A DNA stretch of 64,000 bases from Tubulanus polymorphus (Eukaryota > Animalia > Nemertea): NCBI RefSeq assembly GCF_964204645.1, contig NC_134036.1, positions 10,891,859 to 10,955,858 of the forward strand. Reading direction: 5' to 3'. The notes under the pieces were generated by a model, which was not told the origin of the DNA, did no database searches, and saw only the letters and a program-made list of their open reading frames with translations. Below are positions 2,718 to 27,204 of the stretch, piece after piece. Position 1 is the stretch's first letter. Each line of letters opens with the position of its first letter. The position numbers and the translations under genes are program-made.

Positions 2718-4643
2718 CGGTGTTGTCATATCGCGGAAAGACGGAATCGCGGAATTTTCCAAAAACGCGGAATTTCTTCATTTTTACTTTAAATAGTAAA
2801 CGACTTTTCCCACGGGGATACCCACTGTCGGACAGCGCACCGGACCGATCGATGCAACGAGTTAGGTTCGAATCCCATTATTTTCAGGCAATTTTATATG
2901 GAAATATTATATAACGATACCGCTGGCTGGCTGCCACCTGTAGAAGAAGTCGGAATCAAGTGGGGTGAAAGAGACCAGGCACCTAATGTCTATTTCTACT
3001 AGGCAAACTTCGGTTATCGAAGTTCATCGACTTTTTGAGAACTTCAGAAACGAATATTATCAGATAAATATTGAGCACGTTCGCGGTGTAGGACCGTAGT
3101 TGTAGATGGTTGCAAACATGAAATCCTACGACCAAACAAGTACCGGTTCAAATTCCTTTGAAATTATTATAATTTTACGGCCGTCCAGTACCGGTACCAA
3201 TAAGATTCTTTTGATCCAAATAATCAGCATAGGGACATATATGTTATAGCAGTCACAAAGTAAACATTAAAAGAAAAACGAAACCATTTTATAATCTTTC
3301 ATATCATTTCATTCTAAAAGATAAACCACATTCGCTTATAACAACAATGTAGACACACAACACGCATGAACAATCCTAAGCCAGAATGAAATATACATAA
3401 TGTCTATTTATTTTCGTCTGACATCGATCCAGTTCCACAGTTGTGAGTTAACTCTCAGTTACTTAGAATCAATTCATTTCCAATGTTTTAAATCCAGAGA
3501 CCAGAGTCAAATCTTAACTCGGAAATGAGTCCTGGAGAATGACCCATGATGTCATCACAAATCCTACGTTTACGTACCATCGATTTGTATTCCTTCAGTT
3601 AATGCAGCGATATTCTGTATCACTGAATTCGCAAAGCACGTATTGCCTAGGTTCTCCGCAAAAACCGTAAAGTTTCCCAAGTCTCCGTTTCTACCTAACG
3701 CATGCGCATTAGTCAGTGCTGGAATTGCTCTAAGTCGAGAAATCGGCACATTGCGCATGCGGCACTACATGTGAGCTACATGTAACCTTTAAGGACTAAT
3801 AGTCGCTGTAGTTTCCATTAGGTTCGAATCCCGTAAAAATATTGATCTTATTTACGCTGGTTCATCTTATAAGCGGCGCTATCAGATTCGAAACCCGAAA
3901 ATTACTGATCGTATTTCAAGCGTTACGACATGAACTTTGATGATTAAAGTGTCACTGGGTTATTGTTTGCCGAGTAAAAAAGTGATAGCATCCCGAATAT
4001 GAAATAATGAACTTTGATAGCCCCAGGATTTACTTTTAAGTGCTATTAGGTTCGAATCCCGTATGTGTAGCAGAAAAATACATTCATCCTTTATAATATA
4101 CCGATATATATCTTAGATTTTTAGCTTATGGCAAGACCACTTGAACACCTGTCATTCCCAAAAATACAAATGATCCTCTAAGAGGATCATGAAGAGTCTT
4201 AAGTGACCAAACAAACTGCGCCTTCCCGCTGCGCAAAAGTTCACGCAGGTTCATTCCGTTATAGTTCTATGTTTCAGCGTTCTGACATGACCCAGTTTAG
4301 GAAAAAATACACATGTAGCGACGCATGCGCACGCGACCAATTTCTGGACTTAGAGGATTTCCCCAACACTTCCTAATGCGCATGCGTTATAAACAGAGAC
4401 TTGGGAAACTTTACGGTTTTTGCAGGTTCTCCATTATTTGGAACAGTATCGTTAAGTTGTTGACTGGCGATATAATAAATTATCAAATACTAATTCCCGG
4501 TGTTGAAAACCTGGGTCCGGTGCCCTGTCCGACAGTGGGTATCCCCGTGGGAAAACCCCGTTTACTATTTATAGTAAAAATGAAGAAATTCCGCGTTTTT
4601 GGAAAATTCCGCGATTCCGTCTTTCCGCGATATGACAACACCG
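2718..4643. mobile_element. Non-autonomous DNA transposon with ~130-bp TIRs and 9-bp TSD (Mutator-like)
   Basis: TIR CGGTGTTGTCATATCGCGGAAAGACGG at 2718, inverted copy ending 4643; flanks CTTACTTTC (2709-2717) and CTTATTTTC (4644-4652); excision restores DIRS frame DLEWDENK|VSILAKAQ. Confidence 0.88.
3658..4423. mobile_element. Nested MULE-like MITE with ~110-bp imperfect TIRs and perfect 9-bp TSD
   Basis: GCAAAAACCGTAAAGTTTCCCAAGTCTC ... GAGACTTGGGAAACTTTACGGTTTTTGC; TSD AGGTTCTCC at 3649-3657 and 4424-4432. Confidence 0.88.
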
Positions 4644-4686
4644 CTTATTTTCATCCCACTCTAGATCAAAACTAGTTACCTGCCTG

Positions 4687-5512
4687 TTAGCTACTTGTTC
4701 CTTTCGGCCTTCTTTTTGGTGCCCTGGTTTGGTATGACCTCACTCTGTTGCCGCGGCCTCTCTGGTACTGATGGTATTGTTGGTTGGAGGATTGATGACT
4801 GGAGTACTGTTGGCGGGAGCGTTGGTATTGATAATGGTACGCGTCACACCCTCGCTTCGCTAAAAGATGAGGTCTCATTTTATAATTCTGTATTTTAGAG
4901 TCACGTTGAGAATACTCTTTGTTGAATATGGCGCCAACTTTAGAGAGGTCATTGAGCTCTTTGACCTTATTTGCCATGTCAACTCCAAATAAAACTTCAG
5001 AGGACTCTTTAACACTCTTACTGGCACAAATCGATCGATATCTTGGGTTTATGTGAGGTCTAAGTTCGTAGCGCCTTTGCTCTGCCAACGAGTGTAAGGC
5101 TACGCATGAAAGCGCAAACACATCCATCGTCATTTTAACGGCAAGTTTCAGATCAACTTGCTCCTTATTAGCAATTTTTGGAAAATTCCGCGATTCCGTC
5201 TTTCCGCGATATGACAACACCGCGGTTAGAAGGCTTGTTTTTATCCAACTTTCTGGTACGGGACCTAGTCTTACTAATTTTAGCGACTGAGGCACACTCC
5301 GCGCTCGACTTATTAGCCGAGTCGCCATGATTTTGAGGAAATTGTGAAGGAACACTTACTTCGTCATTCACTGCATTTTTCTCGACTGTTCCAGTCCTCC
5401 TAATCTTCGATTCCGACTCTCCGCCAACCGCATTAGCAGTTTGAGATGGCGGCTTGCTAAAAAGCGCCTCAGCAAGGTTAAATTCTTCCATTTCTTTGGC
5501 CATGATCGGCAC
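4687..5512 (-). pseudogene. DIRS gag-like ORF with central deletion
   Basis: MAKEMEEFNLAEALF... then ...SLAEQRRYELRPHINPRYRSICAS..LFG; Arg/Gln-rich tail; lies upstream of RT. Confidence 0.7.
5175..5222. repeat. Solo 48-bp TIR end of the 2718-4643 element family
   Basis: TTTTTGGAAAATTCCGCGATTCCGTCTTTCCGCGATATGACAACACCG matches the terminal sequence ending at 4643. Confidence 0.85.
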
Positions 5513-6380: not shown

Positions 6381-7785
6381 TTATTAGGGTTTTCTGACTT
6401 TCGTCGAAAACCCTCTTGAAATTCTGTTGATTATTATTATTATTATATATTTTCCGCCGATTTCGTCAAATAAAATTCATCTTCATTCAGATTCGGCAAC
6501 TGACAGCTTCGAAACGAAATGTATAAATTCATACTGTACTAACGGTCTCTCTGAACCAACAGGTTGTCTGAATGTACTTTCCATCCTATTTGAAACTTAA
6601 AATTACTTATTAGGTTACTGTAAATAAAGAATTGAATTGAATTGTTAGACAAGCACCGGCGAAATTACAGTTTGTGACGTCATTTAGTAAGTAAATAAAG
6701 GAGGGCTCCGAGAATTTCCAAATCACGGGGTACTATACTGGGGTTAGACCATTCAACCAAAAAGCGGATTGCTCCGATAATATCCAAATCATCTCATTTT
6801 ATTTTTTCCATCGAATACCCGGTAATTAATTTTTCCTTTCGATCACATGCATCCAGAAAACCCGTTATCGCTGCTTTGCAGCTATATTTATTATATATTT
6901 TCCGCCGATTTTGTCAAATAAAATTCATCTTCATTCGAATTCGGCAACTGACAGCTTCGAAACGAAATGTATAAATTGATACTGTAATAACGGTCTCTCT
7001 GAACCAACAGATTGTCTGAATGTACTTTCCATCCTATTTGAAACTTGAAATTACTTATTAGGTTACTGTAAATAAAGAATTGAATTGAATTGTTAGACAA
7101 GCACCGGCGAAATTACAGTTTGTGACGTCATTTAGTAAGTAAATAAAGGAGGGCTCCGAGAATTTCCAAATCACGGGGTACTATACTGGGGTTAGACCAT
7201 TCAACCAAAAAGCGGATTGCTCCGATAATATCCAAATCATCTCATTTTATTTTTTCCATCGAATACCCGGTAATTAATTTTTCCTTTCGATCACATGCAT
7301 CCAGAAAACCCGTTATCGCTGCTTTGCAGCTATATTTATTATATATTTTCCGCCGATTTTGTCAAATAAAATTCATCTTCATTCGAATTCGGCAACTGAC
7401 AGCTTCGAAACGAAATGTATAAATTGATACTGTAATAACGGTCTCTCTGAACCAACAGATTGTCTGAATGTACTTTCCATCCTATTTGAAACTTGAAATT
7501 ACTTATTAGGTTACTGTAAATAAAGAATTCAATTGAATTGTTAGACAAGCACCAGCGAAATAACAGTTTGTGACGTCATTAAGTAAGTAAATAAAGGAGG
7601 GCTCCGAGAATTGCCAAATCACGGGGGACTATACTGGGGTTAGACCATTCAACCAAAAAGAGGATTGCTCCGATAATATCCAAATCATCTCATTTTATTT
7701 TTCCATCGAATACCCGGTAATTAATTTTTCCTTTCGATCACATGCATCCAGAAAACCCGTTATCGCTGCTTTGCAGCTATATTTT
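6381..7785 (+). mobile_element. Helentron-associated non-autonomous element (HINE) with body in three tandem 448-bp copies
   Basis: 5' hairpin AGGGTTTTC..GAAAACCCT, (TTA)n, each unit ending in subTIR AGAAAACCCG + palindrome GCTGCTTTGCAGC + TATATTT; units start ~6441, 6889, 7337. Confidence 0.75.
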
Positions 7786-8004: not shown

Positions 8005-9120
8005 GTAATTTTCTTCTATATAAATGGAGGATGTAAATACAAGTTAAAAATGTTGATGAAATAAAATATTCTCCAAACATTGTGATAAATATGTTAGTAA
8101 ATCGAATATATCTTTTCATAATAAATCATGTCAACATCAGAAAAATGTAATTGATGACGAAAAAATAAATTTATATGAAAAAAAATAAAAAAATAGATTC
8201 TATAAAACTGAGTGGAATTAATTGTGATATTTGTGATGAAAACATTATGAAAAAAATTATAAGGTACATTTAGATTCTCTATAACATAAAATGAATATAA
8301 TTATAATTATTTTAGGTGAAGAATATTTTGGTGTTAAAAAACAAAGAGAAAATGTCGTTAAAACTGCTTATAAAGACCAATCTTACATGAAAAATATCAA
8401 TGACTACATCAATTCATTGTCTATAAAAGATGATATCGAATTAATTGAAACATTCAGAAGTAAAGTTGGCCCAGCTGCATTAATTATTAGATTTCATAAA
8501 GGAAGATTATCTTAGAATTTTGAAAAAATAGTTAGAAATAATGAAAAACATTGTGAGTTTTGTAACAGATGCTGAATATTCCAAACTTAGTTTTGGTCAA
8601 GTAACATTTACTAAATCTAATGAAAAAGTAACGCACCAGATTCAAATATGTTCTTATGAAGTTATTTTAAATGTTCAAATAGAAGATGTATTAAAGAAAT
8701 TATTTGCAGATTTTAGAACACGTATTGAAGAAAGATATTACGAAGGATCTGGTTAATCATTAGATGGAATATATTTTTTTTTTTGACTTACAAATTTATA
8801 ATAAAATTAGAAAAAATAACGTTAATGATTCAACATACACAACATAGAATTATATTGTTGCTTCATTATATATCAAATTACTGTTTTTAACACAAAAGCA
8901 GTAAAAAATGTTCAAAATGATGATATAAAATGTTTTTTATGGGCAATATTAAGTTATTGATATTCAACAAAAGTTGTTGAACATAGGTATAGATTATCTA
9001 ATTATAAGAAATATGAAAAAGAAACTAAAATATATAGTTATATTGAAATTAAATGTTTATGAGACGATAACATTAAGTGTTTGTAAAGGTGATAATATAC
9101 TACTACACTATACCCTAGAG
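8005..9120 (+). pseudogene. Remnant of a second, diverged Polinton pPolB 5' region
   Basis: YINSLSIKDDIELIETFRSKVGPAALIIRF parallels 10359 YIDSLEIKDTIEILETLRSKIGPAAIIFRF; EERYYEGSG; NVQNDDIKCFLWAI; start TATAAATG at 8024. Confidence 0.8.
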
Positions 9121-9968
9121 CCATTTATATTTTATATTAAGTTTTGAGAAAATTGCAATTTTAGGTTCTCATAATAAAGTCAAAACAGAAAAACCAATGG
9201 TTGGAACTAAAAACTGGAATATGACATGCGAGGATTCTAATGTAATTATTTATTTTTAACGTACTTTTCGTACAAAAATAGTTTAGAACCCACTTACTGT
9301 GTTTTAGCCTTGTAGGATCTTTCAAGCTTTCAAAGCAAAATCGCAGCATGTTATGGCGTGCTAGGCTTAAATACAGTAAGTAACTTTTTCCCAGGTTAAA
9401 AGACAGTATATTCCTCGGTTTCAGCTGAAAGGAATACCATTTTTTCCGGGTTCTAGGTGTGCCTTTAGCGGTTTGTGACATATTGTGTTAGCTCCAGTTA
9501 TGTTATTTTATGTCGTTTTGTCCGTCATTTTATTACTATACCATTATAGGGTCTCGTTTGATGTTCCTTCGCCTGAAGATACGTCAGATGATTCCCTCCC
9601 TATTTAGTGATGATCGTTGGAAGAGAGGTCCGTTTTTCCAGTATTTTACAGTAATTAGGAAATGGCGTTTTCATACCAGAGTACGAGAGTACGAGACACC
9701 ACTCATCACAGCTAGGCTCTAGTGAGAACGGACGATTGCTCTGTGATACACATATACAGTGAGTGCGCGTAACAACAACTTCGCGTGGATAGATCGATAC
9801 AGTGTGTCGCTACTGAGAACGGTTATTAACGCGTGTGCTATTACTGTAGTACAGTGATAGCGTGTCAACTGTGCTCGGATAAATAGATGCTGTGAGGCTT
9901 GGGTGAGAACGGTTAATAGCGTGCTTGTTATATACAAGGGGAAGTAAATCCCCACTCATCACCACAAG

Positions 9969-9989
9969 TAATTTTTTTCCTTATAAATG
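9969..9989 (+). promoter_or_regulatory. Representative T-run/spacer/TAAATG promoter-like motif (recurs at ~15 Polinton gene starts)
   Basis: TAATTTTTTTCCTTATAAATG; TAAAT-type starts also at 8024, 16336(-), 16406, 17087, 17690, 18132, 18583, 19986, 21463, 25473, 26601, 27509, 28050, 28793(-), 29712(-). Confidence 0.7.
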
Positions 9990-12900
9990 GGGGAGAATGA
10001 ACACCAGACAGAAAACAATAATGTTAATAAAAATCAATATTATTGTCCATATTGTAAAAAATACATCGATAAATCTAATAAATCTAAACATGAAAAATCT
10101 GCAAATCATAGAAAAAATGTTATAGATATTGAAACTCCAGAAAATTCCAATGAAAGAAAAGAACGATTAGATGATATGAATGTGGATGAAATAAAATGTG
10201 AAGTTTATAATGAATTTATAGTAAAAAGGAATTATAAAAGACATCTCGAATCACAAAAACACCATCAAAATTTGAGTAATAATGTTTTAGGAAAAGATAA
10301 ACCTCAACAAGTAAAAAAAACAACTTAAAAAACTAAATCCATTTCAAATAAACCTTACATGGAAAATGTTAGAAATTATATTGATTCACTAGAAATAAAA
10401 GATACAATTGAAATTTTAGAAACATTACGTAGTAAAATTGGTCCTGCAGCTATTATATTTAGATTTTTTAAATGTACAACAATAGAAGATTATAGTAAAT
10501 TTAATGAAATAATAGAAAAAATACTAGATTTGATAACAGATGTTGAATATCCAAAAATTAGTATCTCTGGGAAAGTAAGTTTTTTAAAGTCAGAAGAGAA
10601 AATGGATTATAATATTCGAACACTCTCTGAAGAAATAATTTCAAAAACGCAAATAAAAGAGAAGTTAGAAAAAATATTTAATGAATTTAAACGTCATATT
10701 GAAGAGTTCTGGTTTAACATTGAATGGAATTATATTTTTAGATTTAAATGTTTATAATACAAAAAGGAATAAAACATCAAAAAGTAAAACAATGTTTAAA
10801 AATGATTCAAGCTTTACAACAGAAAAGGATAAAAAAGCATCATCTTATATTAAATTACCATTTACAACAAAAGCAGTAATAAATGTTCAAAATGAAGATA
10901 ATAAATGTTTTCTATGGTCAATTATTAGTTGCTTACACCCAACAGAAGATATCACGCATAGTTTTAGAATAACAAATTACCGGAAATATGAAACATTATA
11001 TAAAATTGATCTATATCCAATAACTATAAAAATGATACCCAAAATAGAAAAAAATTAATAATTTAAAAATATATGTATTCGAATTAATGCAATAACCAAA
11101 GACAAAAGGTGAAAATATTAAGGATTATACATTGGAAGCTTTATATTTAACAGAATATTATGATGATGAAAATGCTATAGATTTGTTATATTACAAAAAA
11201 GATGAAAATGAACATTATATGTGGTTAAAACAAATTGATTTATTCTTTAGCACAGAAAGTGATTTTAACAGTCATAAAATTTATCTATGTAGAAAATTTT
11301 TATCTAAATTTAGAACTGAGAATGCTTTACTAAAACATAAAGAATTATGTGGTAATAAAGATTTTTGTAAATTTATAATGCCAACAGAAAAAGATCATAA
11401 ATTGAAATTTACTAATCATAAATTTAAGAATATTGTTCCATTTGTAATTTATGGGGATTTTGAATCGTTCAATAAAGAATTAACTGATCAAGATAGAAAA
11501 GAAATATATAACAAAAAGCAATTATTAAAATCAATGGATAAAGGAAATGAATTAAATGAAGACACAACACAAGATCCGCCAATTATAAACACAATTAAAA
11601 AAGTTCATGAAAGAGCTGCTGCTTATGGAATTTATATGAAATCAAATTATCCTGAATTATATGAAAGTCAATATATTTCTTTTAGAGGTGAAGATGTAGT
11701 TAATGATTTTTGTGACAAAATGATTGAATTTGAAAGTGATTTTGCAAAATTATTAAACAAAAATAAAAGAATAGTTATGACAAAAGAAGATGAAATTGAT
11801 TTTAATTATGCAACTCATTGTTGTTGTTGTGAAAAAACGTTTTCATTCATTTGATAAAAAAGTAAGATATCATGATCATTTAAATTCAAAATATCGTGGA
11901 GCTGCTCATGAAGATTGTAATTTACAAGCTAAGAAAGTTAATTTCGTACCAATATTATTTCATAATTTATCAGGCTATGATACCCATCTATTTATAAAAC
12001 AATTATCGGGAAAATTGGGCGCAATTAATCAAGAAATAGAAGAATATAATGCTATGAATGGTGTAAATGTAAGAACTATTAGCTAAAACATCCGAAAATT
12101 ATATTTCATTTCAATTTGGTTGCATTAGTTTTTTAGATTCTTATAGATTTCTTGCAAGTTCATAAGATAATTTCTCAAAAAGTTTAGTTGATAATGATTT
12201 TATAATAACTCGATATTATTATCCAAATGAACAAGATTTTAAATTATTGAGATATAAAGGTGCAATTCCTTATTCATTTTATAAAACACACAATGATTTT
12301 AATGTAACAGAATTATTAAAGGATCAATTTTATGATCAATTAAAAGAGGAGTATGTGAAAGATGAAGTGTTTAATAGAACATTAAATATTTGGAACCATT
12401 TTAAGATGAAAAATCATGGTGAATTAGTTGATTTATACTTAAAATCAGATGTTATGATATTGGCTGATATATTTGAAAAATTTAGAGAAGTTAATTTGAA
12501 TCATTTTAATGTTGATCCTTGTTATTGCTACTCTAGTCCTGGTTTAACCTGGCAATGTGGTTTAAAATACACAAATGTAGAATTAGATTTATTAAAAGAA
12601 CCAGACATGGTTTTATTATTTGAAAAATGAATTAGAGGTGGAATTAGTGGTGTTATGGGAGATAGGTATTTTAAAGCAAATGATGAATATAAATTATTAT
12701 ATATTGACACCAATAATTTATATGGTTGGGCAATGATGCAACCTCAACCATACAAAAATTTTATATTGACAGGAGTTGAAAATGATGATAAAACTGATTG
12801 GGAAAGCGCAATTGCGAGTTTAAAAGATGAAGCACCAATTGGTTATTTCTTTGTAGTTGATTTAGAATATCCTGAAAATATAAAGTTTAAAACAAGAAAC

Positions 12901-15023
12901 TTACCTTATTGCCCAGAACATTTAACCGTAGATGATAGTTATTTAAGTGAATACCAGAAGAAAATAAAACCGAAAGATTATGTTTTTACAGAAAAATTAA
13001 TACTTACTCAAAATAATAAATACAATTATATTGTTCATTATAGAATGTTAAAATTTTATCTTAAACAAGGAATGAAATTAAAGAAAGTACATAGATATAT
13101 TGAATTTTTAATCAATCGAAGTGGTTAGAAAAATATATAGATTTCAATACTCAACGGAGAACCATATCAAAAACAGATTTTGAAAAAGATTTCTTCAAAT
13201 TAATGAATAATAGTTTTTATGGTAAAACATGCGAAAATATTAGAAATAGAAATGATATTGAATTAGTAAATAATTCTGAACGATTAAGACATTTACAATT
13301 AAGTCCTAGACATTTAGGAAATAAAAGATTTGAAGATTAGTTAACAGCAGTTAAATTAAAAAGAACGTCAATGAAATTTAATAAAGCTATATTAATTGGT
13401 TCAACTGTTTTAGAAGTATCAAAATTATTAATGTATGATTTTTATTATAATGTTTTACAACCACTTTTTGGGGAAAAGCATATTGAAATATTATATTTTG
13501 ATTCTGTAACAGCTGACACCCCAATATTATTAAAATGTAATGATAAAATATCGATAAGAAGAATTTCAGAAATAATTCCCAAACAAAATGAATGTTATAT
13601 TTCATATGGTGAAAAAGAATTAATACAAATAAATGGTTTAATGGATGTTTGGACAAGAAATGGATTGAAAAAATTAAAGAATATTATTAGGCATAAAACA
13701 AATAAGAAAATCTATAGAGTTAGAACTAAATTAGGGTTTGTAGATGTTACAGAAGATCATAGTTTAACTAAACGAATTGGCGATGAAATAAAACCAACTG
13801 ATATAAACATTGGAGATGAATTATTACATAAAAGATTTTTCCAAAGAATGAATCATATGTCATTCGACGAAATTATTGATAATATTCATAATATAGAACC
13901 TGAAACATTAGAAGAAAAATAATATTTTATTAAAGGATTTTTCATGGGTGATGGTTCAGCAGGTGCGTATAATTATGTTTGGGGTAATAAATATTGTTGG
14001 TATTTATGCAATCAAGACTTAAAATTTTTAGAAAGAATTAAGAAATTCTGTGAAGAAGTTTATTCACATAAAACATTTAGAATCATGGATGTTATGAAAT
14101 CATCAGCAGTTTATAGAATACTTGTAAATAATCCTAAAGATTTTGCTATAAAATATAATGATGAATTCTATATTCATGCAATAGTGAAAAGTAATACTTC
14201 AACAAAAGAAAAGATAGTTCCAGATTATGTATTAAATGCAAAAAATTATTTAAGAAAATGGATCTTCATTGGATTCTACGCAGCAGATGGTGCTAAAAAA
14301 TATACAAAGGATAAAAAGATAACCTTTGCACAGATAGGAAAAGTTGCTTTATCGGGGTTAAATATATTATGTAATTCATTAGGCTTCAATATGAATATTG
14401 GATTGATTAAATCTAAAGGAAATTGCTTTAATTTAAGCCACACAGAAAAAGATTTAACGGAAGAAGTTAAAGATTTATTTGAAATATATAACCCAACAGA
14501 TTATGTTTATGATTTATCAACCGAAGATGGCACATTCACCTGTGGATTTCCATTAATTTGCTTCATTACTGATGCGTACATACTAAAAATCAAGACAAAT
14601 GACATAACAAAAGACATAAAAACATTAAAACATCATTTTGATTTTAGCAATTATCCCAAAGATCATGAACTATTTAGCAATGATAATAAAAAAATTCCTG
14701 GTAAATTTAATAATGAATTAGGGGGTGATGAAATGATTGAATTTGTTGGGATAAGAGGTAAAATGTATAGTTACAGAACAAAAGATCATGAAGCTACAAA
14801 GTTAAAAGGAATAACAAAGCATGTGGTTGATAAACATATAGAATTTCAAGATTATATAAAGTGTTTATATAACTCAATTGTAATGAAACACAAAATGAAT
14901 TGTTTAAGATCAGAAGATCACGAGATGTACATTAATGAAGTTGAAAAAACTAGTTTGAATCCATTTGATGATAAAAGGCATATTTTAGATGATGGTATAA
15001 AAACATTACCTTATGGTTATTAA
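9987..15023 (+). pseudogene. Protein-primed DNA polymerase B (N-terminal Zn fingers, OTU-like protease, HNH/EndoVII insert, intein); multiple stops and frameshifts
   Basis: CPYC..H..H; NVQNEDNKCFLWSII + HYMW; exo I YGDFES; HDHLNSKYRGAAHEDCN; FHNLSGYDTH; YLKSDV; IRGG; YIDTNNLYGWAM; KLMNNSFYGK; YFD|TD; KMYS; FDDKR. Confidence 0.93.
13503..14567 (+). other. Intein with LAGLIDADG homing endonuclease in pPolB motif C (355 codons, one internal stop)
   Basis: Starts SVTADTPILL; block B VTEDHSL; GFFMGDGS and GFYAADG; ends YVYDLSTEDGTF..LICFI|TD; removal gives LYFD-TDAY. Confidence 0.9.
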
Positions 15024-15160
15024 AATGGATCAATATCATCAAACTCGAAATCACTATTGGCTTCTTCATTTTCATTTAATTGTTCAGGTTCTTCTTCCAT
15101 TCCATTTTTCTCATTCAAATAAAGTTCTATCTTGTTCCACATTTCATCTCGCTCTCTTTG

Positions 15161-16336
15161 TTACTTTTTGTTTGTTAATTCATCAAATGGAATTATAATA
15201 TCTATGTTTAAATAATTTACAATCTTATTTAAAAAGAATTCATGATTAATTGAATCTGTTATTCTATTTTCCAAATGATATATTAATATTTGTTTGAATG
15301 TTTTTTTTATATTTTCCATATCTTCTTCTGTTAATTTAGGTTTTTCATAATAATCGTTAAATAATAAATATAAATACATTTTCTTATGTTTTGTGTTAAA
15401 TGTTGACGGAATAATTATTTTTATAATATCTTTTTTAGTTATTTCACCATTTCTATTTTCTATTATTTTCATTTTTTCAAGCCATTGCATATATTCTGGT
15501 GTATGATCTTCTATAGAAAATGTTTCATTTTCAATTTCATCTAGATAATTTATTTTTGGATCTATGAGAAAATTTCTAGTTTTTTCTTCACTCCATAAAT
15601 TCTTTTGCCATCCACATTCATTACAAAATAACACAGTACCTTCTTGTCTTAAGGTTGCATAACTACATTGTGGACATTTTTGTTTATAATTTATTGGTAA
15701 TAGATCTTCATTAAGCTCTTCGTATTTTCTTACGTTTTCTTTATGTTTTATTGTTCTATTATGTAGATTTGAATTACTTGTTGTAATAATCAATTTACAA
15801 TATTTACAATAATATGTTTTTCTTGTTAATTCATTATATTGTTTTTCTAACTTTTCAACTGTTTCTTTATTATCTGGTAACGTTTTCTCATATTTTATTT
15901 TTTCTAATAAATTATTTTTTCTTTCATTGAATTCAGTTTCAAATTTATTAGGAATTTTATCTATATGTGCTTTACGAAATTGATGATTCTCCCAATCTTC
16001 TATATTTTCAGGGCTATATTTTATTCGACAAGGCTCACAGAAATGATCTTTTATATTATCCTTGTCATAGAATAAGAAAGGTGTTTTCCAAATAACTTCA
16101 GGTTCTACTTCAACAGAATTACTATTACTTTCGTTACTATCAACATTAGCCGTTGCGCCATTAATTTTACACTTCTCTGAATGTTTTTTAACATAATTTC
16201 TTGAGAATAATTTATTACATTTTGGACAGTTTAGTTTAGGGGGTTTATAATTTTCATCATGTTTTTTCATATGTCGAGCCATATTACTTTTTCTTAGAAG
16301 TTCACCACAAATTTCACATGCTATCTTCTCATCCAT
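15161..16336 (-). CDS. Polinton multi-zinc-finger protein (391 aa, intact)
   Basis: CEIC..RHMKKH, CPKC..KHSEKC, CEPC..H..H, CKYC..H..H, CPQC/CNEC; TAAATG start. Confidence 0.75.
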   Translation of the reverse strand: MDEKIACEICGELLRKSNMARHMKKHDENYKPPKLNCPKCNKLFSRNYVKKHSEKCKINGATANVDSNESNSNSVEVEPEVIWKTPFLFYDKDNIKDHFCEPCRIKYSPENIEDWENHQFRKAHIDKIPNKFETEFNERKNNLLEKIKYEKTLPDNKETVEKLEKQYNELTRKTYYCKYCKLIITTSNSNLHNRTIKHKENVRKYEELNEDLLPINYKQKCPQCSYATLRQEGTVLFCNECGWQKNLWSEEKTRNFLIDPKINYLDEIENETFSIEDHTPEYMQWLEKMKIIENRNGEITKKDIIKIIIPSTFNTKHKKMYLYLLFNDYYEKPKLTEEDMENIKKTFKQILIYHLENRITDSINHEFFLNKIVNYLNIDIIIPFDELTNKK

Positions 16337-16405
16337 TTATTAAGGAAAAATTTTATTGAAATTAATTTTTAGTGATGAGCGGTAATTTTTTTTATGTTAT
16401 AAATA

Positions 16406-17070
16406 ATGGTAGAATTAAAAGAATACAGAATATTTGTTGATTCAAGAAGACTTACAAATTATAAATCACATAATTTATTAGTTCAATTAGATAGAGAATT
16501 TAAGAATTGTGTAGATTTAAAATTAGTTAATATAAGTTTATGTAACTCTTTTTACTATATATCAGATAAAACTGATGAACATAGAAGCCTTTTTATTTTT
16601 GATTAGGATAAAAAGTGAGAGCTCTAATAAAATTAAAATAAAGTTTGATAATGATTATTTTAAACTTTATCAACATACAAAAGAAAGATATCTTTACATG
16701 GTAAAAAAAACCTATAGCTAAACTGTTAGGAATTCCTCCAGATAAAGATATTAGAGAAAACATATACGGTAGATCAAACTTAATACCTTTTACACATTTT
16801 TATATTTATTGCAATTTAATTGACCCAACAAAAACATTTGAAGCAACTAAAGATATAACTTGTAATTCTTGTATATTAAACATTTTACCATTAAAGAATG
16901 TTAAACAATTTGGAACGCAAATAAATTATAATTTAGCTGAATGTGATTTTAAACCTTGCATTCCTAAATTTAATAATTTTAAATTAGAAATAAGAAATCA
17001 TAATGGTTATTTAATTGATTTGAATAACTTTCCTGTGATATATGAATTAATTATAAGATGTAAAGAGTAA
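16406..17070 (+). pseudogene. Minor capsid (penton-like) protein, disrupted
   Basis: IFVDSRR..LVQLDREFKNCVDLKLVNISLCNSFY at N-term; FYIYCNLI..LEIRNHNGYLIDLNNFPVIYELII at C-term in another frame. Confidence 0.7.
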
Positions 17071-17086
17071 TTTTTTCATTATATAA

Positions 17087-17665
17087 ATGAATATAACTGT
17101 TGGACCGAGTATATGTTTTGGGTTTGATTTCAAACGTGAGAAAGAAATGAAATTTAACGTTAATGATGTAATCACACATATCAAAAATATTGCATTTTCT
17201 AATGAAACAACATTTGAGTATGAAACAACAATAGATAAAGAAACTTTAAATGTAGAAAAGATTACTAATTTAATAAGAGAATCTTTAAGATTTTATGAAT
17301 TAGATGAAGATTTTATCATCGATGATATTAAAAAAATAATAATTGAAATATATACAAATGAAACTAGTAATGAAATAAATGTTGAAATAATCATAAATAA
17401 GTTAACTAAATATTTTGATGATAGTAATTTTTTTGATAAATCAATGAGTGATAATAAGTGGATAATAACTGGATTATATAATGGCGCATTACTATCACTT
17501 GGAACTGTTGGTTATTCACTGGTATTAAAAAAAGTATTTAAAATGGGAAGTGTTAATGTTGATAGATTTGATATAAATGATATTTTAGAAATAACGTTAG
17601 CAGTTACTTTATCTAATTTAACTATTGATTATTTGGAAAAACAAAAATATATTCCTCCCATATAA
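17087..17665 (+). CDS. Polinton hypothetical protein with C-terminal hydrophobic helices
   Basis: 192-aa ORF, TAAATG start. Confidence 0.6.
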   Translation: MNITVGPSICFGFDFKREKEMKFNVNDVITHIKNIAFSNETTFEYETTIDKETLNVEKITNLIRESLRFYELDEDFIIDDIKKIIIEIYTNETSNEINVEIIINKLTKYFDDSNFFDKSMSDNKWIITGLYNGALLSLGTVGYSLVLKKVFKMGSVNVDRFDINDILEITLAVTLSNLTIDYLEKQKYIPPI

Positions 17666-17689
17666 ATGCATAATTTTTTTGCTAAATAA

Positions 17690-18112
17690 ATGGCTTCTGC
17701 AATTATAACTATTATAGGATCGGCAAATGTCAACGCTTTTGCATTTGCTGGTGGTGGTTATTTATTTAAACATATTGATAAAAATGGATCATTAACAGAA
17801 CAAAAAAGACATAACTTAGCATTAGAGAAATATGATAAAGCTGCAGAAGAATACAGAGAAAAGAGACAAAACTATATGGATAACATCAATAAAGAATTAA
17901 TTGATCAGAATATTTCACATAGAGATTTTCTATCAGTTGATGATGCAATGAGTATATATAACGCAGTAACCAATAAAGAAAAATTACATCTATACGAACC
18001 TAAATTATCAGATTATTATACCCCAAGTAAAGAACAACAGAAATATGAAATAATATGGATTTTAGGTGGAACAGTTATTGCTATATTTGTAGCATATAAA
18101 TTTACTTATTAG
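17690..18112 (+). CDS. Polinton putative membrane protein (hydrophobic N-term, coiled coil, C-terminal TM)
   Basis: 140 aa; AFAFAGGGYLF, EQKRHNLALEK, IIWILGGTVIAIFVAY; TAAATG start. Confidence 0.65.
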   Translation: MASAIITIIGSANVNAFAFAGGGYLFKHIDKNGSLTEQKRHNLALEKYDKAAEEYREKRQNYMDNINKELIDQNISHRDFLSVDDAMSIYNAVTNKEKLHLYEPKLSDYYTPSKEQQKYEIIWILGGTVIAIFVAYKFTY

Positions 18113-18131
18113 TAATTTTTTTTCTAAATAA

Positions 18132-18566
18132 ATGGAAGATAAAGTTGATAATATTGATATTATTACTCATGATATAAATAAAACTAAATTAAAAACATAT
18201 TTAGAAAAACAAATATTAGAATTTGAAAATGACTTAAAGATAAAAAAGAAAAAATATTTAAAAAGTAAAATTATATATTATTTAACTATAAGTGGTTCGG
18301 TTACAATTAGTTCTGTAATAACATTTTTAGCAATATTCAGCCCATTAACACTTTTAGCTATATCAATTGGCGTATTAGGATTAAGTTCAAGTGTTTTAAC
18401 TGGTATAAGTTCAAAATTAAATATAAAAAGTAATAAAGAAAAATTTAAAACTAATATAAAAGAAATTAATAAATTAAAGAACACACTAGATTATATAATA
18501 AGTTTAAATGGCCATATAACAGTTGAAGAACAAGATAAATTATTAAAAGAATTAATAAATTATTAA
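18132..18566 (+). CDS. Polinton two-TM hairpin protein flanked by coiled coils
   Basis: 144 aa, central hydrophobic hairpin; TAAATG start. Confidence 0.6.
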   Translation: MEDKVDNIDIITHDINKTKLKTYLEKQILEFENDLKIKKKKYLKSKIIYYLTISGSVTISSVITFLAIFSPLTLLAISIGVLGLSSSVLTGISSKLNIKSNKEKFKTNIKEINKLKNTLDYIISLNGHITVEEQDKLLKELINY

Positions 18567-18582
18567 TTTTTTAATTATATAA

Positions 18583-19969
18583 ATGGTAGATAGTTTTCCA
18601 AAAGCTTTCCAATATAATAAATCAATTAAATATAATATTCCAGCAATAGATTTTAATAAAGATATTACATATAGAAATGAAGTTTTAGATTCATTAACTA
18701 ATTTAGAAATTTATGTTACTGAAACTAATAATTTCAATCCAAAGATGGAAAATATTTTTCATGTATATTTAATTGATTTTAAAAAATTGAAAGATGAAAA
18801 ACAATGGTTATTAAAATCTAATATGAAGTATTGGCAGAACCAATTAAATTTAGCTGTTTATTGTGCAACAACAGGTTGTGGAATTAGTTGGAATAATCAT
18901 TTGAATAATTCTAAATATAAATTAATTCAAAGTTTATTTAGATTTCATACATACTTTCAAATAAGATTAATATTAAATGAATTAGAGTGTCCTTTACCAG
19001 GATTTACCAGGTATTTTAAAGAATTAGATAATAATATTAATTTGTCAAAGTTTTATAAAATTTGTAATGAATATAATATAGATATAAATAATTCTGATTT
19101 TAGAACGAAAATTGGAACAATAAGATCACTTCCTTGCCCTAAAAAGATTGCAGAATATTGTGCACTTCCCATACCATCTAATAGTTTTTATAATATCTAT
19201 AATAATAAATTAGTATGGTAAAATAGAAACTAAGGATTTAGAAACATTAAATTTCAATAAATTACCGACATTTTATGATAATGTAACAAGAAAACAATAA
19301 TGGTTGGGTTTATTTCATTTTAGAAAATAGTGAAGGTTTTACTAAATCAAGTATAGAAAGAATAAATCAATCTATTAGAACTTATTTGATATGTATTTTA
19401 GGTGCGCAAGTTGAAACAGGATCCACAATAATTGGAAATTTAAATACATCATTTGATACACAAAAACAATTTAAAGTATTATTTGAAGATCCATTCATAA
19501 TGATAAAAATAGATCGATTCCAGAAAACATTGTAAGATATCAAAATTATTTAGATAAATCACATATTAGATTAAATCATTGTATCGGCCCTAATCTATTT
19601 ATTATTTCTAATGATTTAGTATTAAAGATGGGAAACATAATTGGTTACAATAATCTAATTAAAACAGCAACAATAAATAATTCATTTGGATTAAATGATA
19701 TAAATAAAAAGATAATTACTGCTCCAAAATTAATGGAAGGTGAAAAAAATAAAAAACATATTCAATCAACAGAAACTAAAACTAAGAATATTAAATTGGA
19801 TAATGATTCCAAAATAAAAGATTACAATACTACAGAAAATATAAAAACTGATAATATTCAACATGATATAATTAAACTAAATGATGATAATAAATCCCAT
19901 GAAAATACTAAATTAGCTTTAACTTGTATAGGAATTGTAATCGGAGGAATATTATATTTTAAATTTTAA
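18583..19969 (+). pseudogene. Polinton hypothetical protein with C-terminal TM anchor, frameshifted
   Basis: WQNQLNLAVYCATTGCGISW; FRFHTYFQIR; continues via frameshifts into 19628..19969 (LALTCIGIVIGGILYF). Confidence 0.6.
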
Positions 19970-19985
19970 TTTTTTTATTATATAA

Positions 19986-21428
19986 ATGGATGTAGAAGGT
20001 GGAGAAGATATTGGAATGGATCCTTTTGATGAACCTGGTATAAGTGATGAACAACCACCTGATTTTGATGAAAGAAGTTTTAATGATGGTAATGAGCACG
20101 GATATAATAATAATTTAAATATGCCTGATTATATTAAAAATGCAGAATCACCATTAAATCCTGAAAATTTAGACCCAGGTTTAGTAAAAGAAGATTTAGA
20201 TAATTTAAACAAAATACCTAAATTAGAAGATTTAATTGAAAAATCTAAACTTAACATAAATGATGAAGACGTTGGACTTTTAGCATATCAATTAAAATTT
20301 TTAGATAATGGTAAATGTTATTATCGTTTGAAAGGTGATTATTATATTGATATCACTTCTAAAAATAATAAAAAAATATTAGCGGAATCAACTTTGAAAA
20401 GTTTAAAACCAGATAAAATTAAAAGAATAAGTAATAGTAATGAAATAACTGATGTTACACAAAAAGAAATAGATGATAATATAGACGTATTTAAACAAAG
20501 AATTAATGAATTATTTGAAATAATCAAAAAGAAATCAGAAACAGAAACAACTTCTGAACAGAATATAACTTCCAAAACTAGTAAACTTAAATCAAATAAA
20601 GTTTCAATTGAAAAACTTTTACCGAATGGATTACTTGATGCAACAGATCAAGAATTAGAAGATTTAGATATATTTTCTGATGAAGCAATTAGAGAAATTA
20701 TTAGTATAAGAAATGAAGCTGATAAAATTGCACATAATAAAAGTATAAGAGATCAAAAAATTATGTATTTGGAAAAAGAATTAACTAATGCAAATAAAGA
20801 AATAGAAAAACTAAAGTCTGATTTAGATCATCGAGTAATTGATTAAATCGAATATAGGCAAAAAGAATTACGATTAGAAAAAGAAATTAATAATTTAAAA
20901 GATAATTTAGAAGTACAGAAAGAAGAAATTAAATTATTGTTAAAATCATATGATTATAATATTAATAGATTAAAAGATGTTTTTAAAAGATATCTAATAA
21001 AACAAGATTCTAAAATATCATTGAAAGATAGAATAACATTATTATTTAAATTTGAAGGAATAACAATTCTTTCAATTCTAACAGCTGTAACTATGTTATT
21101 TACAACAATTGGTTTAGCAATATCAAATGCTTTAAAATCTACTCCTACTCCAAATAAACCAGATAAATCCCCAGATAATAATTCTATACAAGATAAAGTT
21201 AAAGATGGTTTAAAGAAATTAGCAAAATATTTATGGGAACTATCTTAAAAATCCGCTGCAGCATTGCCAGGAATCATTGCATCAATTGTTGGTTTTATAT
21301 TGAAATCTGCAGGAAACATTATTAACTTCGCTGCTGAACATATTATTTTATTTCTAATTACAGTTGTAGGTGCTATTATTTTTGGGTTAGTGAATATGAT
21401 ATCAAAAAGATATCAAGAAAAAAAATAA
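19986..21428 (+). pseudogene. Polinton coiled-coil/membrane protein, two in-frame stops (copy 1)
   Basis: One frame through stops at 20844 and 21246; hydrophobic C-term KSAAALPGIIASIVGFIL... Confidence 0.7.
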
Positions 21429-21462
21429 TAAAAAATAAATAACTAATTTTTTTGTTAAATAA

Positions 21463-21873
21463 ATGAGTGGGAGTTATATAAGTCCTTCTAAGAATTCTAG
21501 AATATCTAATGCTATTAAAGCAGAAAGATCACATCATATAATTACGCATAACCCTTCTAATATTAATCCTGATGAAACTTTATATGTTAGAATCCCTAGA
21601 TTAACACAAAATACTTTTTACGTTCCAAATAGTATTTATTTATCAGCCGATATAAAAGTAATCGGTAATAATAATAATTATGTTGTTGATAATGTTGGAA
21701 GATATTTGATTGAAAAATTAACTATAAAGATTGGTCCAGAAACAGTTTTCTCATTAGATGATTATAATTTATTTATGCATTATAAAGATTTATGGTTAAC
21801 TAAAGAAAATAGAAATAATATGATATTTCAGGGTATTCAATCGGAAAACCATAATAAATTAAGATCGGGAAGT
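21463..21873 (+). pseudogene. Major capsid protein 5' fragment truncated at the duplication junction
   Basis: Identical to the 24195 ORF up to KLRSGS. Confidence 0.85.
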
Positions 21874-22717
21874 AAAAGATTGCAGAATATTGTGCACTTC
21901 CCATACCATCTAATAGTTTTAATAATATCTATAATAATAAATTAGTATGGTAAAATAGAAACTAAGGATTTAGAAACATTAAATTTCAATAAATTACCGA
22001 CATTTTATGATAATGTAACAAGAAAACAATAATGGTTGGGTTTATTTCATTTTAGAAAATAGTGAAGGTTTTACTAAATCAAGTATAGAAAGAATAAATC
22101 AATCTATTAGAACTTATTTGATATGTATTTTAGGTGCGCAAGTTGAAACAGGATCCACAATAATTGGAAATTTAAATACATCATTTGATACACAAAAACA
22201 ATTTAAAGTATTATTTGAAGATCCATTCATAATGATAAAAATAGATCGATTCCAGAAAACATTGTAAGATATCAAAATTATTTAGATAAATCACATATTA
22301 GATTAAATCATTGTATCGGCCCTAATCTATTTATTATTTCTAATGATTTAGTATTAAAGATGGGAAACATAATTGGTTACAATAATCTAATTAAAACAGC
22401 AACAATAAATAATTCATTTGGATTAAATGATATAAATAAAAAGATAATTACTGCTCCAAAATTAATGGAAGGTGAAAAAAATAAAAAACATATTCAATCA
22501 ACAGAAACTAAAACTAAGAATATTAAATTGGATAATGATTCCAAAATAAAAGATTACAATACTACAGAAAATATAAAAACTGATAATATTCAACATGATA
22601 TAATTAAACTAAATGATGATAATAAATCCCATGAAAATACTAAATTAGCTTTAACTTGTATAGGAATTGTAATCGGAGGAATATTATATTTTAAATTTTA
22701 ATTTTTTTATTATATAA

Positions 22718-24160
22718 ATGGATGTAGAAGGTGGAGAAGATATTGGAATGGATCCTTTTGATGAACCTGGTATAAGTGATGAACAACCACCTGATTTTGA
22801 TGAAAGAAGTTTTAATGATGGTAATGAGCACGGATATAATAATAATTTAAATATGCCTGATTATATTAAAAATGCAGAATCACCATTAAATCCTGAAAAT
22901 TTAGACCCAGGTTTAGTAAAAGAAGATTTAGATAATTTAAACAAAATACCTAAATTAGAAGATTTAATTGAAAAATCTAAACTTAACATAAATGATGAAG
23001 ACGTTGGACTTTTAGCATATCAATTAAAATTTTTAGATAATGGTAAATGTTATTATCGTTTGAAAGGTGATTATTATATTGATATCACTTCTAAAAATAA
23101 TAAAAAAATATTAGCGGAATCAACTTTGAAAAGTTTAAAACCAGATAAAATTAAAAGAATAAGTAATAGTAATGAAATAACTGATGTTACACAAAAAGAA
23201 ATAGATGATAATATAGACGTATTTAAACAAAGAATTAATGAATTATTTGAAATAATCAAAAAGAAATCAGAAACAGAAACAACTTCTGAACAGAATATAA
23301 CTTCCAAAACTAGTAAACTTAAATCAAATAAAGTTTCAATTGAAAAACTTTTACCGAATGGATTACTTGATGCAACAGATCAAGAATTAGAAGATTTAGA
23401 TATATTTTCTGATGAAGCAATTAGAGAAATTATTAGTATAAGAAATGAAGCTGATAAAATTGCACATAATAAAAGTATAAGAGATCAAAAAATTATGTAT
23501 TTGGAAAAAGAATTAACTAATGCAAATAAAGAAATAGAAAAACTAAAGTCTGATTTAGATCATCGAGTAATTGATTAAATCGAATATAGGCAAAAAGAAT
23601 TACGATTAGAAAAAGAAATTAATAATTTAAAAGATAATTTAGAAGTACAGAAAGAAGAAATTAAATTATTGTTAAAATCATATGATTATAATATTAATAG
23701 ATTAAAAGATGTTTTTAAAAGATATCTAATAAAACAAGATTCTAAAATATCATTGAAAGATAGAATAACATTATTATTTAAATTTGAAGGAATAACAATT
23801 CTTTCAATTCTAACAGCTGTAACTATGTTATTTACAACAATTGGTTTAGCAATATCAAATGCTTTAAAATCTACTCCTACTCCAAATAAACCAGATAAAT
23901 CCCCAGATAATAATTCTATACAAGATAAAGTTAAAGATGGTTTAAAGAAATTAGCAAAATATTTATGGGAACTATCTTAAAAATCCGCTGCAGCATTGCC
24001 AGGAATCATTGCATCAATTGTTGGTTTTATATTGAAATCTGCAGGAAACATTATTAACTTCGCTGCTGAACATATTATTTTATTTCTAATTACAGTTGTA
24101 GGTGCTATTATTTTTGGGTTAGTGAATATGATATCAAAAAGATATCAAGAAAAAAAATAA
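22718..24160 (+). pseudogene. Polinton coiled-coil/membrane protein (copy 2, same stops)
   Basis: Duplicate of 19986-21428. Confidence 0.7.
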
Positions 24161-24194
24161 TGAAAAATAAATAACTAATTTTTTTGTTAAATAA

Positions 24195-25442
24195 ATGAGT
24201 GGGAGTTATATAAGTCCTTCTAAGAATTCTAGAATATCTAATGCTATTAAAGCAGAAAGATCACATCATATAATTACGCATAACCCTTCTAATATTAATC
24301 CTGATGAAACTTTATATGTTAGAATCCCTAGATTAACACAAAATACTTTTTACGTTCCAAATAGTATTTATTTATCAGCCGATATAAAAGTAATCGGTAA
24401 TAATAATAATTATGTTGTTGATAATGTTGGAAGATATTTGATTGAAAAATTAACTATAAAGATTGGTCCAGAAACAGTTTTCTCATTAGATGATTATAAT
24501 TTATTTATGCATTATAAAGATTTATGGTTAACTAAAGAAAATAGAAATAATATGATATTTCAGGGTATTCAATCGGAAAACCATAATAAATTAAGATCGG
24601 GAAGTAATGACGCAATAGTAACTCGTGCCACAGATAATTTGATTAAAAAGATTTATGGAAGCAAATATAAAATCCCATTAAACTTTGAATTGATAAATAA
24701 CAATGCACCTTCATATAAATACGCAATTCAAGAAGATATTATATTTGAGATAACATTTGCTCCTGTTAATGAAATTGTATTATCTAGCGTTGTTAAAGAT
24801 ATGGGTTATAAATTATCGAATATATGTTTAGAATATAACACAGTCACCAATGAAAATATTGCTAGCACAATTCAAACTCAATACAATCAAGGATTTTCAT
24901 TATTATATGATTATATTGATAAATTTAAAACTGTAACTATTAATGCAAATGATGAAATAATTAATGAGAATATTAACTTCCCAAGAAGATCTATTAAAGG
25001 TATATTAATATTCTTTACCATTGCAACATATACTAATGGTGCAATAAATGTTGATAATTATTATAATCCTGAAATAACAAAAGTAGAAATAACTATCGAA
25101 GGAATAGCAAATAAAATATTTTGTCAAGGAATGAGAATGATTGATCAATGGCCAGAAATTAGAAAACATTTTATGAATGAAAAAGTAAAATCATTTGAAA
25201 ATTGTAATATTAATCAAATTGATTATTATACCGGCAATAAATATGCATTATGGTTAGATTTTAGAACAACAGAGGATAATTCATTACATGGTTCTGGAAA
25301 AAAACTACAGAATACTAAAGATGGAATACAATTATTAATGAAAAAGAAAAGAGGAGACAAAAATTTTAAAATGCACATTTATATTATATCTGATGCACAA
25401 TTAAATATTGTAAATTCACAATTAGATAGTATTCAATATTAG
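24195..25442 (+). CDS. Major capsid protein (double jelly-roll, putative), intact 415 aa
   Basis: Size, beta-rich pattern (LSNICLEYNTV, INFPRRSIKGILIFF, ALWLDFRT) and position next to INT/ATPase. Confidence 0.78.
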   Translation: MSGSYISPSKNSRISNAIKAERSHHIITHNPSNINPDETLYVRIPRLTQNTFYVPNSIYLSADIKVIGNNNNYVVDNVGRYLIEKLTIKIGPETVFSLDDYNLFMHYKDLWLTKENRNNMIFQGIQSENHNKLRSGSNDAIVTRATDNLIKKIYGSKYKIPLNFELINNNAPSYKYAIQEDIIFEITFAPVNEIVLSSVVKDMGYKLSNICLEYNTVTNENIASTIQTQYNQGFSLLYDYIDKFKTVTINANDEIINENINFPRRSIKGILIFFTIATYTNGAINVDNYYNPEITKVEITIEGIANKIFCQGMRMIDQWPEIRKHFMNEKVKSFENCNINQIDYYTGNKYALWLDFRTTEDNSLHGSGKKLQNTKDGIQLLMKKKRGDKNFKMHIYIISDAQLNIVNSQLDSIQY

Positions 25443-25472
25443 AAATATAAAGTTTAAATTAAGGATATATAA

Positions 25473-26600: not shown

Positions 26601-27204
26601 ATGAATAAGGAATTATTTATATTTGAGCCTCATAATATGTTAATTTCTGGCGTAACAAATTGTGGAAAAACTTGTTTTATATTAAATTTTTTAGAAACTG
26701 TTTATGAAAACTATTTTGATAATATAGTATTATTTTGCCCAACATATGAATTTAATCAAACTTATGATAGAAATATTACTAGAAATAATAAATTTATTAT
26801 ATTAGATCCTAAAACAGTAAAAGAAAATTTAGATAATTGTATAAAAATAGCAATTGATATTTATAAAGGATCAAATACATTATTCATTATAGATGATTGT
26901 GCTAATTTACATGATTCAAAAGTTAGAGAAAGTGAGTTATGTTATTTAGCTTTTTCTGGCAGACATTTTGGGATAACAACTTGGGTTTTAAATCAAAAAT
27001 ATAATTCAATTGTTAAAGATTTTAGGGAGAAGATTTCTAGTTTTATTCTACAATAAAGATAGAAAATCGATGAAAAATGCACTTGAGGAAAATGATATTA
27101 TTCCACATGATTTACATAATGAATATATGGATAAGTTGAAATATATTAAAAGATCAAAATTACTAATTAGATTACAACACCCATTTAAATATGAATTTAT
27201 TTAA
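26601..27204 (+). pseudogene. A32/FtsK-like packaging ATPase, frameshift near 27030
   Basis: Walker A GVTNCGKT, Walker B FIIDD, SGRHFGIT..LNQ; C-term in 27010..27204 frame. Confidence 0.9.

Follow-up and report, generated by a model that had tools for sequence, protein, structure and literature searches.

A decayed copy of a homing-type intein at motif C of a Polinton DNA polymerase, and a family of related inteins in Polinton elements

RESULTS

A Polinton element among transposon remnants

The window analysed here, a stretch of 64,000 nt from Tubulanus polymorphus, contains an AT-rich block (~9690–29757) between inverted repeats, with a GC content of 24% versus 38–42% in the flanks. The left terminal inverted repeat (9690–9994, plus strand) is interrupted by ~253 nt (9699–9951), which are missing from many other copies: 142 reads join position 9698 to 9952. 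The right terminal inverted repeat lies at 29705–29757 on the minus strand (44 nt, 91%). A protein-primed DNA polymerase (pPolB) gene is spread over about ten pieces at 9987–15023 (plus strand); one piece matches PF03175 (E-value 2e-5), and the pieces are 70–78% identical to the open polymerases P0244–P0246. The block also holds a zinc-finger ORF of 391 aa (15161–16336, minus strand; zf-U1, E-value 8e-7), a likely double jelly-roll major capsid protein of 415 aa (24195–25442, plus strand), a retrovirus-like integrase with a chromodomain (25473–26600, plus strand; rve, E-value 4.5e-11), and the N-terminal piece of an A32-like packaging ATPase (26601–27056, plus strand; Pox_A32, E-value 3.7e-12). 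The capsid assignment comes from Atlas, with values of 0.97–0.98 to viral clusters, some with capsid Pfams (the recognition value of these matches is low), and from Capsid_N (E-value 0.015). The candidate has no match in PHROGs or PDB, and its single-sequence fold has a pLDDT of 28.5. The polymerase, integrase, ATPase and terminal inverted repeats bear out the original prediction that the gene is a Polinton pPolB. Inside the element, a 2.73-kb tandem duplication (19142–24607, plus strand; 99.9% identical) is either a recent duplication or an assembly error. A maturation protease was not found by Pfam, which may miss a diverged one; no target-site duplication was found, and the element ends are disturbed. 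Immediately to the left of the element, 8005–9130 (at low-copy read depth) shares 65% identity with 9968–11006 and is an older remnant of the first gene of a related Polinton.

The flanks contain a Pao peptidase (PF05380, E-value 1.8e-44) and remnants of DIRS-like and other transposons. Features observed there (173–5355, 6435–7784, 29792–31021, 31891–33662, and 52057–55967) comprise a DIRS-like retroelement with a Dam-like domain, a 448-bp tandem repeat, the Pao fragment, and transposase-like ORFs, which have no Pfam match and which we take to be CACTA-like. The element had been described as embedded in an animal-like genome; the flanking transposons agree with this, but no host gene was recognised within the 64,000-nt window. 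An animal host is likely. Low-copy flank sequence is nearly exact in contigs under the same species label (2 differences over 601 nt, 1 over 966 nt), and one such contig stops at 9678, just ahead of the terminal repeat. Runs from two studies cover the element with deep, heterogeneous reads, and the named members of its polymerase class come from Mytilus, Pecten, and Ladona (two molluscs and one dragonfly). The element is, moreover, riddled with stops and frameshifts amid Pao-, DIRS-, and other transposon remnants. These observations make it most improbable that the region is a contaminant or that its host is not an animal, even though the window lacks a recognised host gene and no listed read or contig joins an element end to unique host DNA.

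An endonuclease-bearing intein in motif C

Motif C of the decayed polymerase (YFD/TDA; the slash marks the insertion site) is split by an endonuclease-bearing intein, present as a broken copy of 1065 nt, or 355 codons (13503–14567, plus strand). It lies in frame, flanked by EKHIEILYFD and TDAYILKIKT. In the intein-free relatives P0244–P0246, KHIEIMYFDTDSYILKIK runs uninterrupted across the site, which fixes both borders. A Hint domain is split around a two-motif LAGLIDADG endonuclease. The N-terminus is Ser1 (SVTADTP), and block B reads TEDH (T83–H86, residues 83–86; 13749–13760, plus strand). The endonuclease comprises LAGLIDADG motif 1 FIKGFFMGDG (residues 142–151 with acidic D150; 13926–13955, plus strand; PF14528) and motif 2 IFIGFYAADG (residues 254–263 with acidic D262; 14262–14291, plus strand). 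Blocks F and G span 14505–14567 (plus strand), with block F VYDLSTEDGTF at residues 335–345, and the +1 residue is Thr. T83, D85, and H86 are invariant in 19/19 aligned rows, as are both catalytic acids and K237. Blocks F and G have a one-residue deletion in common with the sister group described below and end in a terminus that is non-canonical in this copy, the terminal residue being Ile and the penultimate one Phe. An in-frame stop (13920–13922, plus strand), private to this copy, stands immediately ahead of endonuclease motif 1. The class 1 intein features Ser1, block B TxxH, block F Asp, and +1 Thr were all found; the open frame and canonical terminus of that class are absent from this copy. 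In all these respects (a 355-codon in-frame insert between YFD and TD; Ser1, TEDH, two LAGLIDADG motifs, block F, and +1 Thr; the stop at 13920 and the terminal Ile) the sequence agrees with what had been noted before.

For profile searches the insert was read with X at the stop codon. TIGR01445 (intein N-terminal region) scored 31.9 bits versus a cut-off of 24.5, and PF14528 (LAGLIDADG_3) scored 24.2 versus 22.5. PF14890 (Intein_splicing) gave an E-value of 1e-7, yet its 32.3 bits fall below the cut-off of 35.8. An AlphaFold2 model of the intein, with 19 sequences as input, has a pLDDT of 89.4 and a Hint fold; the Hint and LAGLIDADG assignment held in two of these profiles and in the model. 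The top PDB matches of the model are endonuclease-bearing inteins (2cw7, E-value 6e-15) and I-DmoI (target TM ~0.7). In a BFVD structure search the top 7 matches were all giant-virus proteins, 6/7 of them PolB; the best viral matches are PolBs of a phycodnavirus, pandoraviruses, a marseillevirus, and a megavirus. Two other identities were considered for the insert and rejected. A chance ORF does not fit the TIGR01445 and PF14528 scores above cut-off; a Hint domain of the Hedgehog type, or a bacterial intein-like domain, is contradicted by the endonuclease, the active-site position, and the existence of empty alleles.

Filled and empty copies in the reads

Copies were followed in raw whole-genome shotgun reads under the same species label (X5; ~12% of the run); four sequencing runs contain part of the intein's words. 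Read depth was 4.5x in low-copy flank bins, 212x in the intein, and 556x and 702x in the polymerase flanks. We estimate ~45–47 filled copies among 125–157 related polymerase copies, figures that are uncertain ~2-fold because the likeness thresholds differed and the flank is possibly hemizygous. The intein is skipped by 90 reads. The gap is exactly 1065 bases in 9 of them, and in the other 81 the match to the window resumes only at 14577–14619; the majority of empty copies thus diverge from this filled copy immediately after the site. Another 105 reads depart from the window at 13502. Filled and empty copies therefore coexist in same-label reads, as the search for intein-plus and intein-minus alleles had been meant to find out. 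At the stop codon 246/251 reads are unlike the window, and at the last codon of the intein 106/113 are, which makes both the stop and the bad terminus private to this copy. This copy is a fossil, predicted to be able neither to splice nor to cut.

One intein family resident in Polinton polymerases

A search at near-full length gave 37 matches, the top 20 of which (P0002–P0021) are Polinton-type or decayed copies thereof. In a longer search with 319 matches, 6 of the best 120 (P0039–P0043 and P0120) are again Polinton-type or decayed copies, and the top 5 (P0039–P0043) are Polinton polymerases with a complete intein at the identical site. The intein of P0039 is 61% identical to that of the window; P0040 stands for a cluster of 136, on contigs of up to 1 Mb, and P0042 for a cluster of 121. 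Identity among Polinton inteins is 46–61%, and to any outside intein it is at most 43%. Of the 9 complete Polinton inteins, all end canonically and are followed by Thr at +1, and 8 begin with Ser1. Open full-length Polinton polymerases carry the intein at the same site, including one of the other polymerase class (P0043), which scores strongly on PF03175, as in the Alpha class of PMC8502044, and is missed by the profile of the window's class. Despite its different polymerase, the P0043 intein nests within the Polinton clade (99/93). The intein is thus one family resident in Polinton polymerases and not a one-off.

Most related polymerases lack it. Among 118 new close polymerases, the site is empty in 84, partly filled in 2, and unscorable in 32, an empty share of 84/86 scorable sequences. 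The target motif varies among Polintons (YFD, YGD, YMD, YSD, YLD). In 29 of the 84 empty sites in related polymerases (P0248–P0355) Cys replaces Thr at +1 (xxD/CDS), possibly an escape from the endonuclease. In a profile search of 1.84 billion representatives, where polymerases with multiple inteins pushed up many of the top scores, the best 150 of 2288 matches included no further complete Polinton intein. Intein-bearing Polinton DNA was found in 0/597 and 0/311 candidate stretches of metagenome contigs and in 0/7 (P0003) and 0/9 (P0046) viral contigs. Among the best 80 of 515 IMG/VR loci identity tops out at 42%.

Relationship to inteins of large DNA viruses

Trees were built from inteins of 315–460 aa (154 of 160 in range after duplicate removal); the careful tree has 38 hand-picked rows and the widest 258. 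In the careful tree, 6 Polinton rows form one clade (100/99), which nests in a 26-row clade (98/93) of inteins from RNA-primed PolBs. Next to the Polinton clade, with a support of 95 on 258 rows and 69/88 on the careful tree, stands a likely sister group of 22 rows, 18 of them giant-virus-type and 4 phage-type PolB inteins. The one-residue deletion near the C-terminus occurs in 6/6 Polinton rows, in 8/8 sister-group rows, and in 0/24 others. A protein from a giant-virus MAG is identical to P0051, the deletion-bearing IMG/VR loci newly found are giant-virus MAGs in 8/8 cases, and in the polymerase tree the polymerases of the sister inteins group with aquatic giant-virus MAGs. An AU test (LG+F+G4, 24 rows, archaeal pol-c rows left out) gave p-values of 0.33 for the giant-virus group as sister, 0.10 for phage, 0.61 for P0045, and 0.07 for Asgard PolB, and rejected solely a Chloropicon Pol delta sister (p 0.0002).

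From these trees we regard a giant virus as the likeliest donor, with reasonable but not high confidence. The phylogeny supports the predicted kinship with NCLDV inteins in that the Polinton clade lies within a clade dominated by giant-virus-type inteins and its nearest non-Polinton relatives are mostly giant-virus-type PolB inteins; it does not fix the donor, as 4 sister rows are phage-type and the AU test leaves phage, Pol delta-like, and Asgard sisters unrejected. A large bacteriophage PolB or a protist Pol delta might have donated an equally real and mobile intein, which we consider clearly the lesser chance. P0046 and P0047 match phrog_262 (E-value ~1e-160) and P0049 and P0378 group with them, but 18/22 sister-group rows are giant-virus-type, only 1/50,697 named phage records matched, and the phage copies are possibly recipients themselves, since the wider clade is dominated by giant-virus-type rows. 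The best single-intein non-Polinton profile matches listed are the Pol delta-like P0045 and the phage-type P0047, and neither a phage nor a P0045 sister is rejected by the AU test; P0045, however, is without the common deletion, and the Chloropicon Pol delta is the one sister that the test excludes.

Entry of the intein into Polintons looks single and old, because the Polinton inteins form one clade and no outside intein exceeds 43% identity; the clade stem measures 0.35–0.43 changes per site. The proposal that the intein moved between an NCLDV PolB and this particular element does not stand: the intein belongs to a Polinton-only clade with a long stem, outside identity is at most 43%, and its GC3 is like that of the polymerase (0.17 versus 0.16–0.19).

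Several related inteins were seen along the way. The four archaeal outgroup (pol-c) inteins fall far outside on a long branch and archaeal pol-c inteins from GTDB loci are 29–32% identical; close kinship with euryarchaeal or TACK-type archaeal pol-c inteins was rejected. In two archaeal-type PolBs (L099:5001–6008 and L101:5001–6008; one of them from a Promethearchaeota MAG) the intein belongs to the giant-virus-type group and not to the usual archaeal pol-c group. The phage-type PolBs P0046, P0047, P0049, and P0378, one on a 236-kb contig, hold an intein subfamily otherwise found in giant-virus-type PolBs. The Pol delta of Chloropicon primus (P0137) has a 342-aa endonuclease intein at the same site, grouped with prasinovirus-like inteins (98/94), and P0045 is a second Pol delta-like protein with an intein; an intein in a nuclear DNA polymerase is absent from the table of PMC5784728 in its accessible part. 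Type II topoisomerase holds the same intein group at two other sites, DQD/TDG and SKH/TDG (L012:10001–11203; P0138, P0150, P0152–P0154), and each of the RNA-primed PolBs P0356–P0365 has two or three inteins, placed at the sites in motifs B and C.

Signs of homing and of inheritance

We compared closely related filled and empty polymerases. Outside the intein, filled P0040 and empty P0203 share 97.8% identity, and 8/26 of their differences fall within 15 of 1191 residues around the site (P-value 8e-10). P0210 (filled) and P0213 (empty) are 99.2% identical, and the site differs by the intein alone. Such ~98%-alike alleles, differing mostly at the site, are likely a homing footprint, and the intein has likely spread by cutting and converting empty copies. 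The clustered differences could also mark cut-resistant empty alleles in place of co-conversion. On a 56-row polymerase tree presence and absence amount to 7 changes, a count by which gain and loss are indistinguishable.

Within the window's polymerase class, intein identity (48–61%) roughly follows polymerase identity (39–70%), a pattern that also fits long vertical residence with repeated loss. The intein might then be an old passenger, gained once, inherited with the polymerase, lost repeatedly, and showing little or no homing today; its host-like GC3 and the 84/86 empty sites among scorable new close polymerases would suit such a history. We nevertheless judge it unlikely, given the invariance of the catalytic acids and K237 and the presence of the intein in both polymerase classes. 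Filled and empty alleles that are 98–99% identical occur in two separate clusters, with site-clustered differences in one, and a flanking tract is not expected from precise loss alone.

Poxvirus-like gene starts

The repeated TATAAATG in the element sequence prompted a check of its gene starts. A TAAATG start motif, often behind a T run, recurs at the gene starts of the element (9982–28052, no strand assigned). All 13/13 starts examined (8024–28052) read ATAAATG, 9 of them after a run of at least five T, against a background in the element of 53/786 ATGs preceded in this way (TAAATG). The starts chosen were stop-to-stop ORFs opening with Met, so that a stop before the ATG is partly built in, but the frequency of such ORFs is not. 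TAAAT is a poxvirus start element (PMC4542343), and Maverick-type viruses have been found in entomopoxvirus occlusion bodies (PMC11296320). The poxvirus-like TAAATG offers a better hint of helper dependence than the intein does.

The intein had been taken as independent support for life in a virus factory. A transfer that looks old and single is silent on the present lifestyle of the element and does not point to its co-infection. In favour of a co-infection in which the polymerase of this element received its intein from a giant virus, and of replication in a virus factory, are the site and intein family in common with giant viruses, the 13/13 TAAATG starts, the poxvirus start element (PMC4542343), and the occlusion-body findings (PMC11296320). 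Such a history is very unlikely all the same: giant-virus inteins are at most 43% identical whereas Polinton inteins reach 61%, the clade stem is long (0.35–0.43 changes per site), and poxvirus-type machinery is what the promoter hint suggests, while the polymerases that house the sister inteins group with aquatic giant-virus MAGs. As the intein's sister group sits in other giant viruses, the TAAATG clue and the intein clue are not one story and need not come from one helper.

DISCUSSION

Overall, we suggest, with a probability of roughly 0.78, that the window holds a broken copy of a LAGLIDADG intein in motif C of a Polinton polymerase, intact copies of which would self-splice and likely spread by cutting empty genes. 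In intein chemistry, Ser1 shifts the bond, the +1 Thr takes it, and the cyclising terminal residue releases the intein. Intact copies are predicted to follow this class 1 route, driven by Ser1, the block B His, and a canonical terminus with +1 Thr. A working polymerase would require accurate splicing, since the catalytic DTD is interrupted by the insert. In empty copies the conserved motif C DNA would be cut by the endonuclease; a filled copy would then serve as the repair template, and the intein plus some flank would be copied across. The pol-c intein pool of large DNA viruses, most likely a giant virus, may have been the source of a single, ancient entry of the lineage into Polintons, and a crossing between the two Polinton polymerase classes may have come later; conservation of motif C would have let the lineage pass between RNA-primed and protein-primed polymerases as well as between Polinton classes. 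A fuller picture is conceivable but on balance doubtful: a giant-virus-derived intein in both Polinton polymerase classes, still homing in animal genomes, and riding on a parasite of a poxvirus-like helper whose cytoplasmic factories bring filled and empty genomes together.

The closest known counterparts are the pol-c inteins of RNA-primed PolBs. The Polinton intein is like them in its motif C site (xxD/TD), Ser1, +1 Thr, length of ~350 aa, and Hint domain with a two-motif LAGLIDADG endonuclease, and it falls among them in the tree as well as in the fold search. It differs in its protein-primed host polymerase, in residing in an integrating 20-kb element with tens of chromosomal copies, and in its varied target motif and own clade. 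The pol-c site is that of the mimivirus PolB intein (PMC549080), as the original prediction held. Archaeal endonuclease-bearing inteins (PI-PkoII 2cw7, the Tli and Pho VMA inteins, and PI-PfuI) are the best solved-structure matches, with a structural identity of 12–16%. Like the fungal and protist nuclear inteins of VMA1 and Prp8, the Polinton intein is endonuclease-bearing and probably resides in nuclear DNA; those inteins occupy single-copy host genes, whereas this one occupies a dispersed virus-like element. The HNH and VSR insertions of Polinton pPolB2 (PMC10748475) likewise place a nuclease domain within a Polinton polymerase, but in the accessible text have no Hint domain or splice junctions, in contrast to the whole splicing apparatus and empty alleles found here. 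The terms 'intein', 'Hint', and 'LAGLIDADG' are absent from the text and one supplement of PMC10748475. The nearest statement in print is that of PMC11071308, which, in the part available, ascribes the HNH and VSR inserts to intein invasions and refers for this to a study of such inserts. The element itself resembles Polintons/Mavericks (adintoviruses, PMC8502044) in its pPolB, rve integrase, A32 ATPase, likely capsid protein, terminal inverted repeats, and length of ~20 kb. It departs from adintoviruses as described in the accessible part of that source by its intein and uniform TAAATG starts, and by having no protease or target-site duplication found.

PMC5784728 covers 257 eukaryotic and 136 viral inteins, with 67 viral DdDP inteins; its section 5 treats inteins in fungi, protists, plastids, and giant viruses and names no animal. 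PMC12220804 has GIY-YIG and HNH genes in its available text, the accessible text of PMC3671162 mentions inteins for giant viruses only, and a term search of PMC13215967 gave no match. In the literature within reach, outside which lay subscription papers, Repbase, and InBase, we found no intein described in a Polinton or other protein-primed polymerase and no report of inteins from animal chromosomes. A family of pol-c LAGLIDADG inteins that resides in Polinton polymerases and occurs in multiple copies in what is probably an animal genome is therefore likely new, and the finding matters because inteins in animal chromosomes are not reported in the literature searched.

Confirmation would mean that animal genomes contain true inteins, tens of copies of them, carried by endogenous Polintons; that one homing site is common to RNA-primed and protein-primed polymerases; and that there is a direct genetic link between Polintons and the gene pool of large DNA viruses. 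The coexistence of filled and empty alleles in one genome provides a marker for measuring homing and for asking in which state, chromosomal copy or replicating virus, Polinton genomes recombine. If the homing reading is true, animal chromosomes would have their first known case of an intein that splices and spreads by itself, residing in an endogenous virus-like element and not in a host gene.
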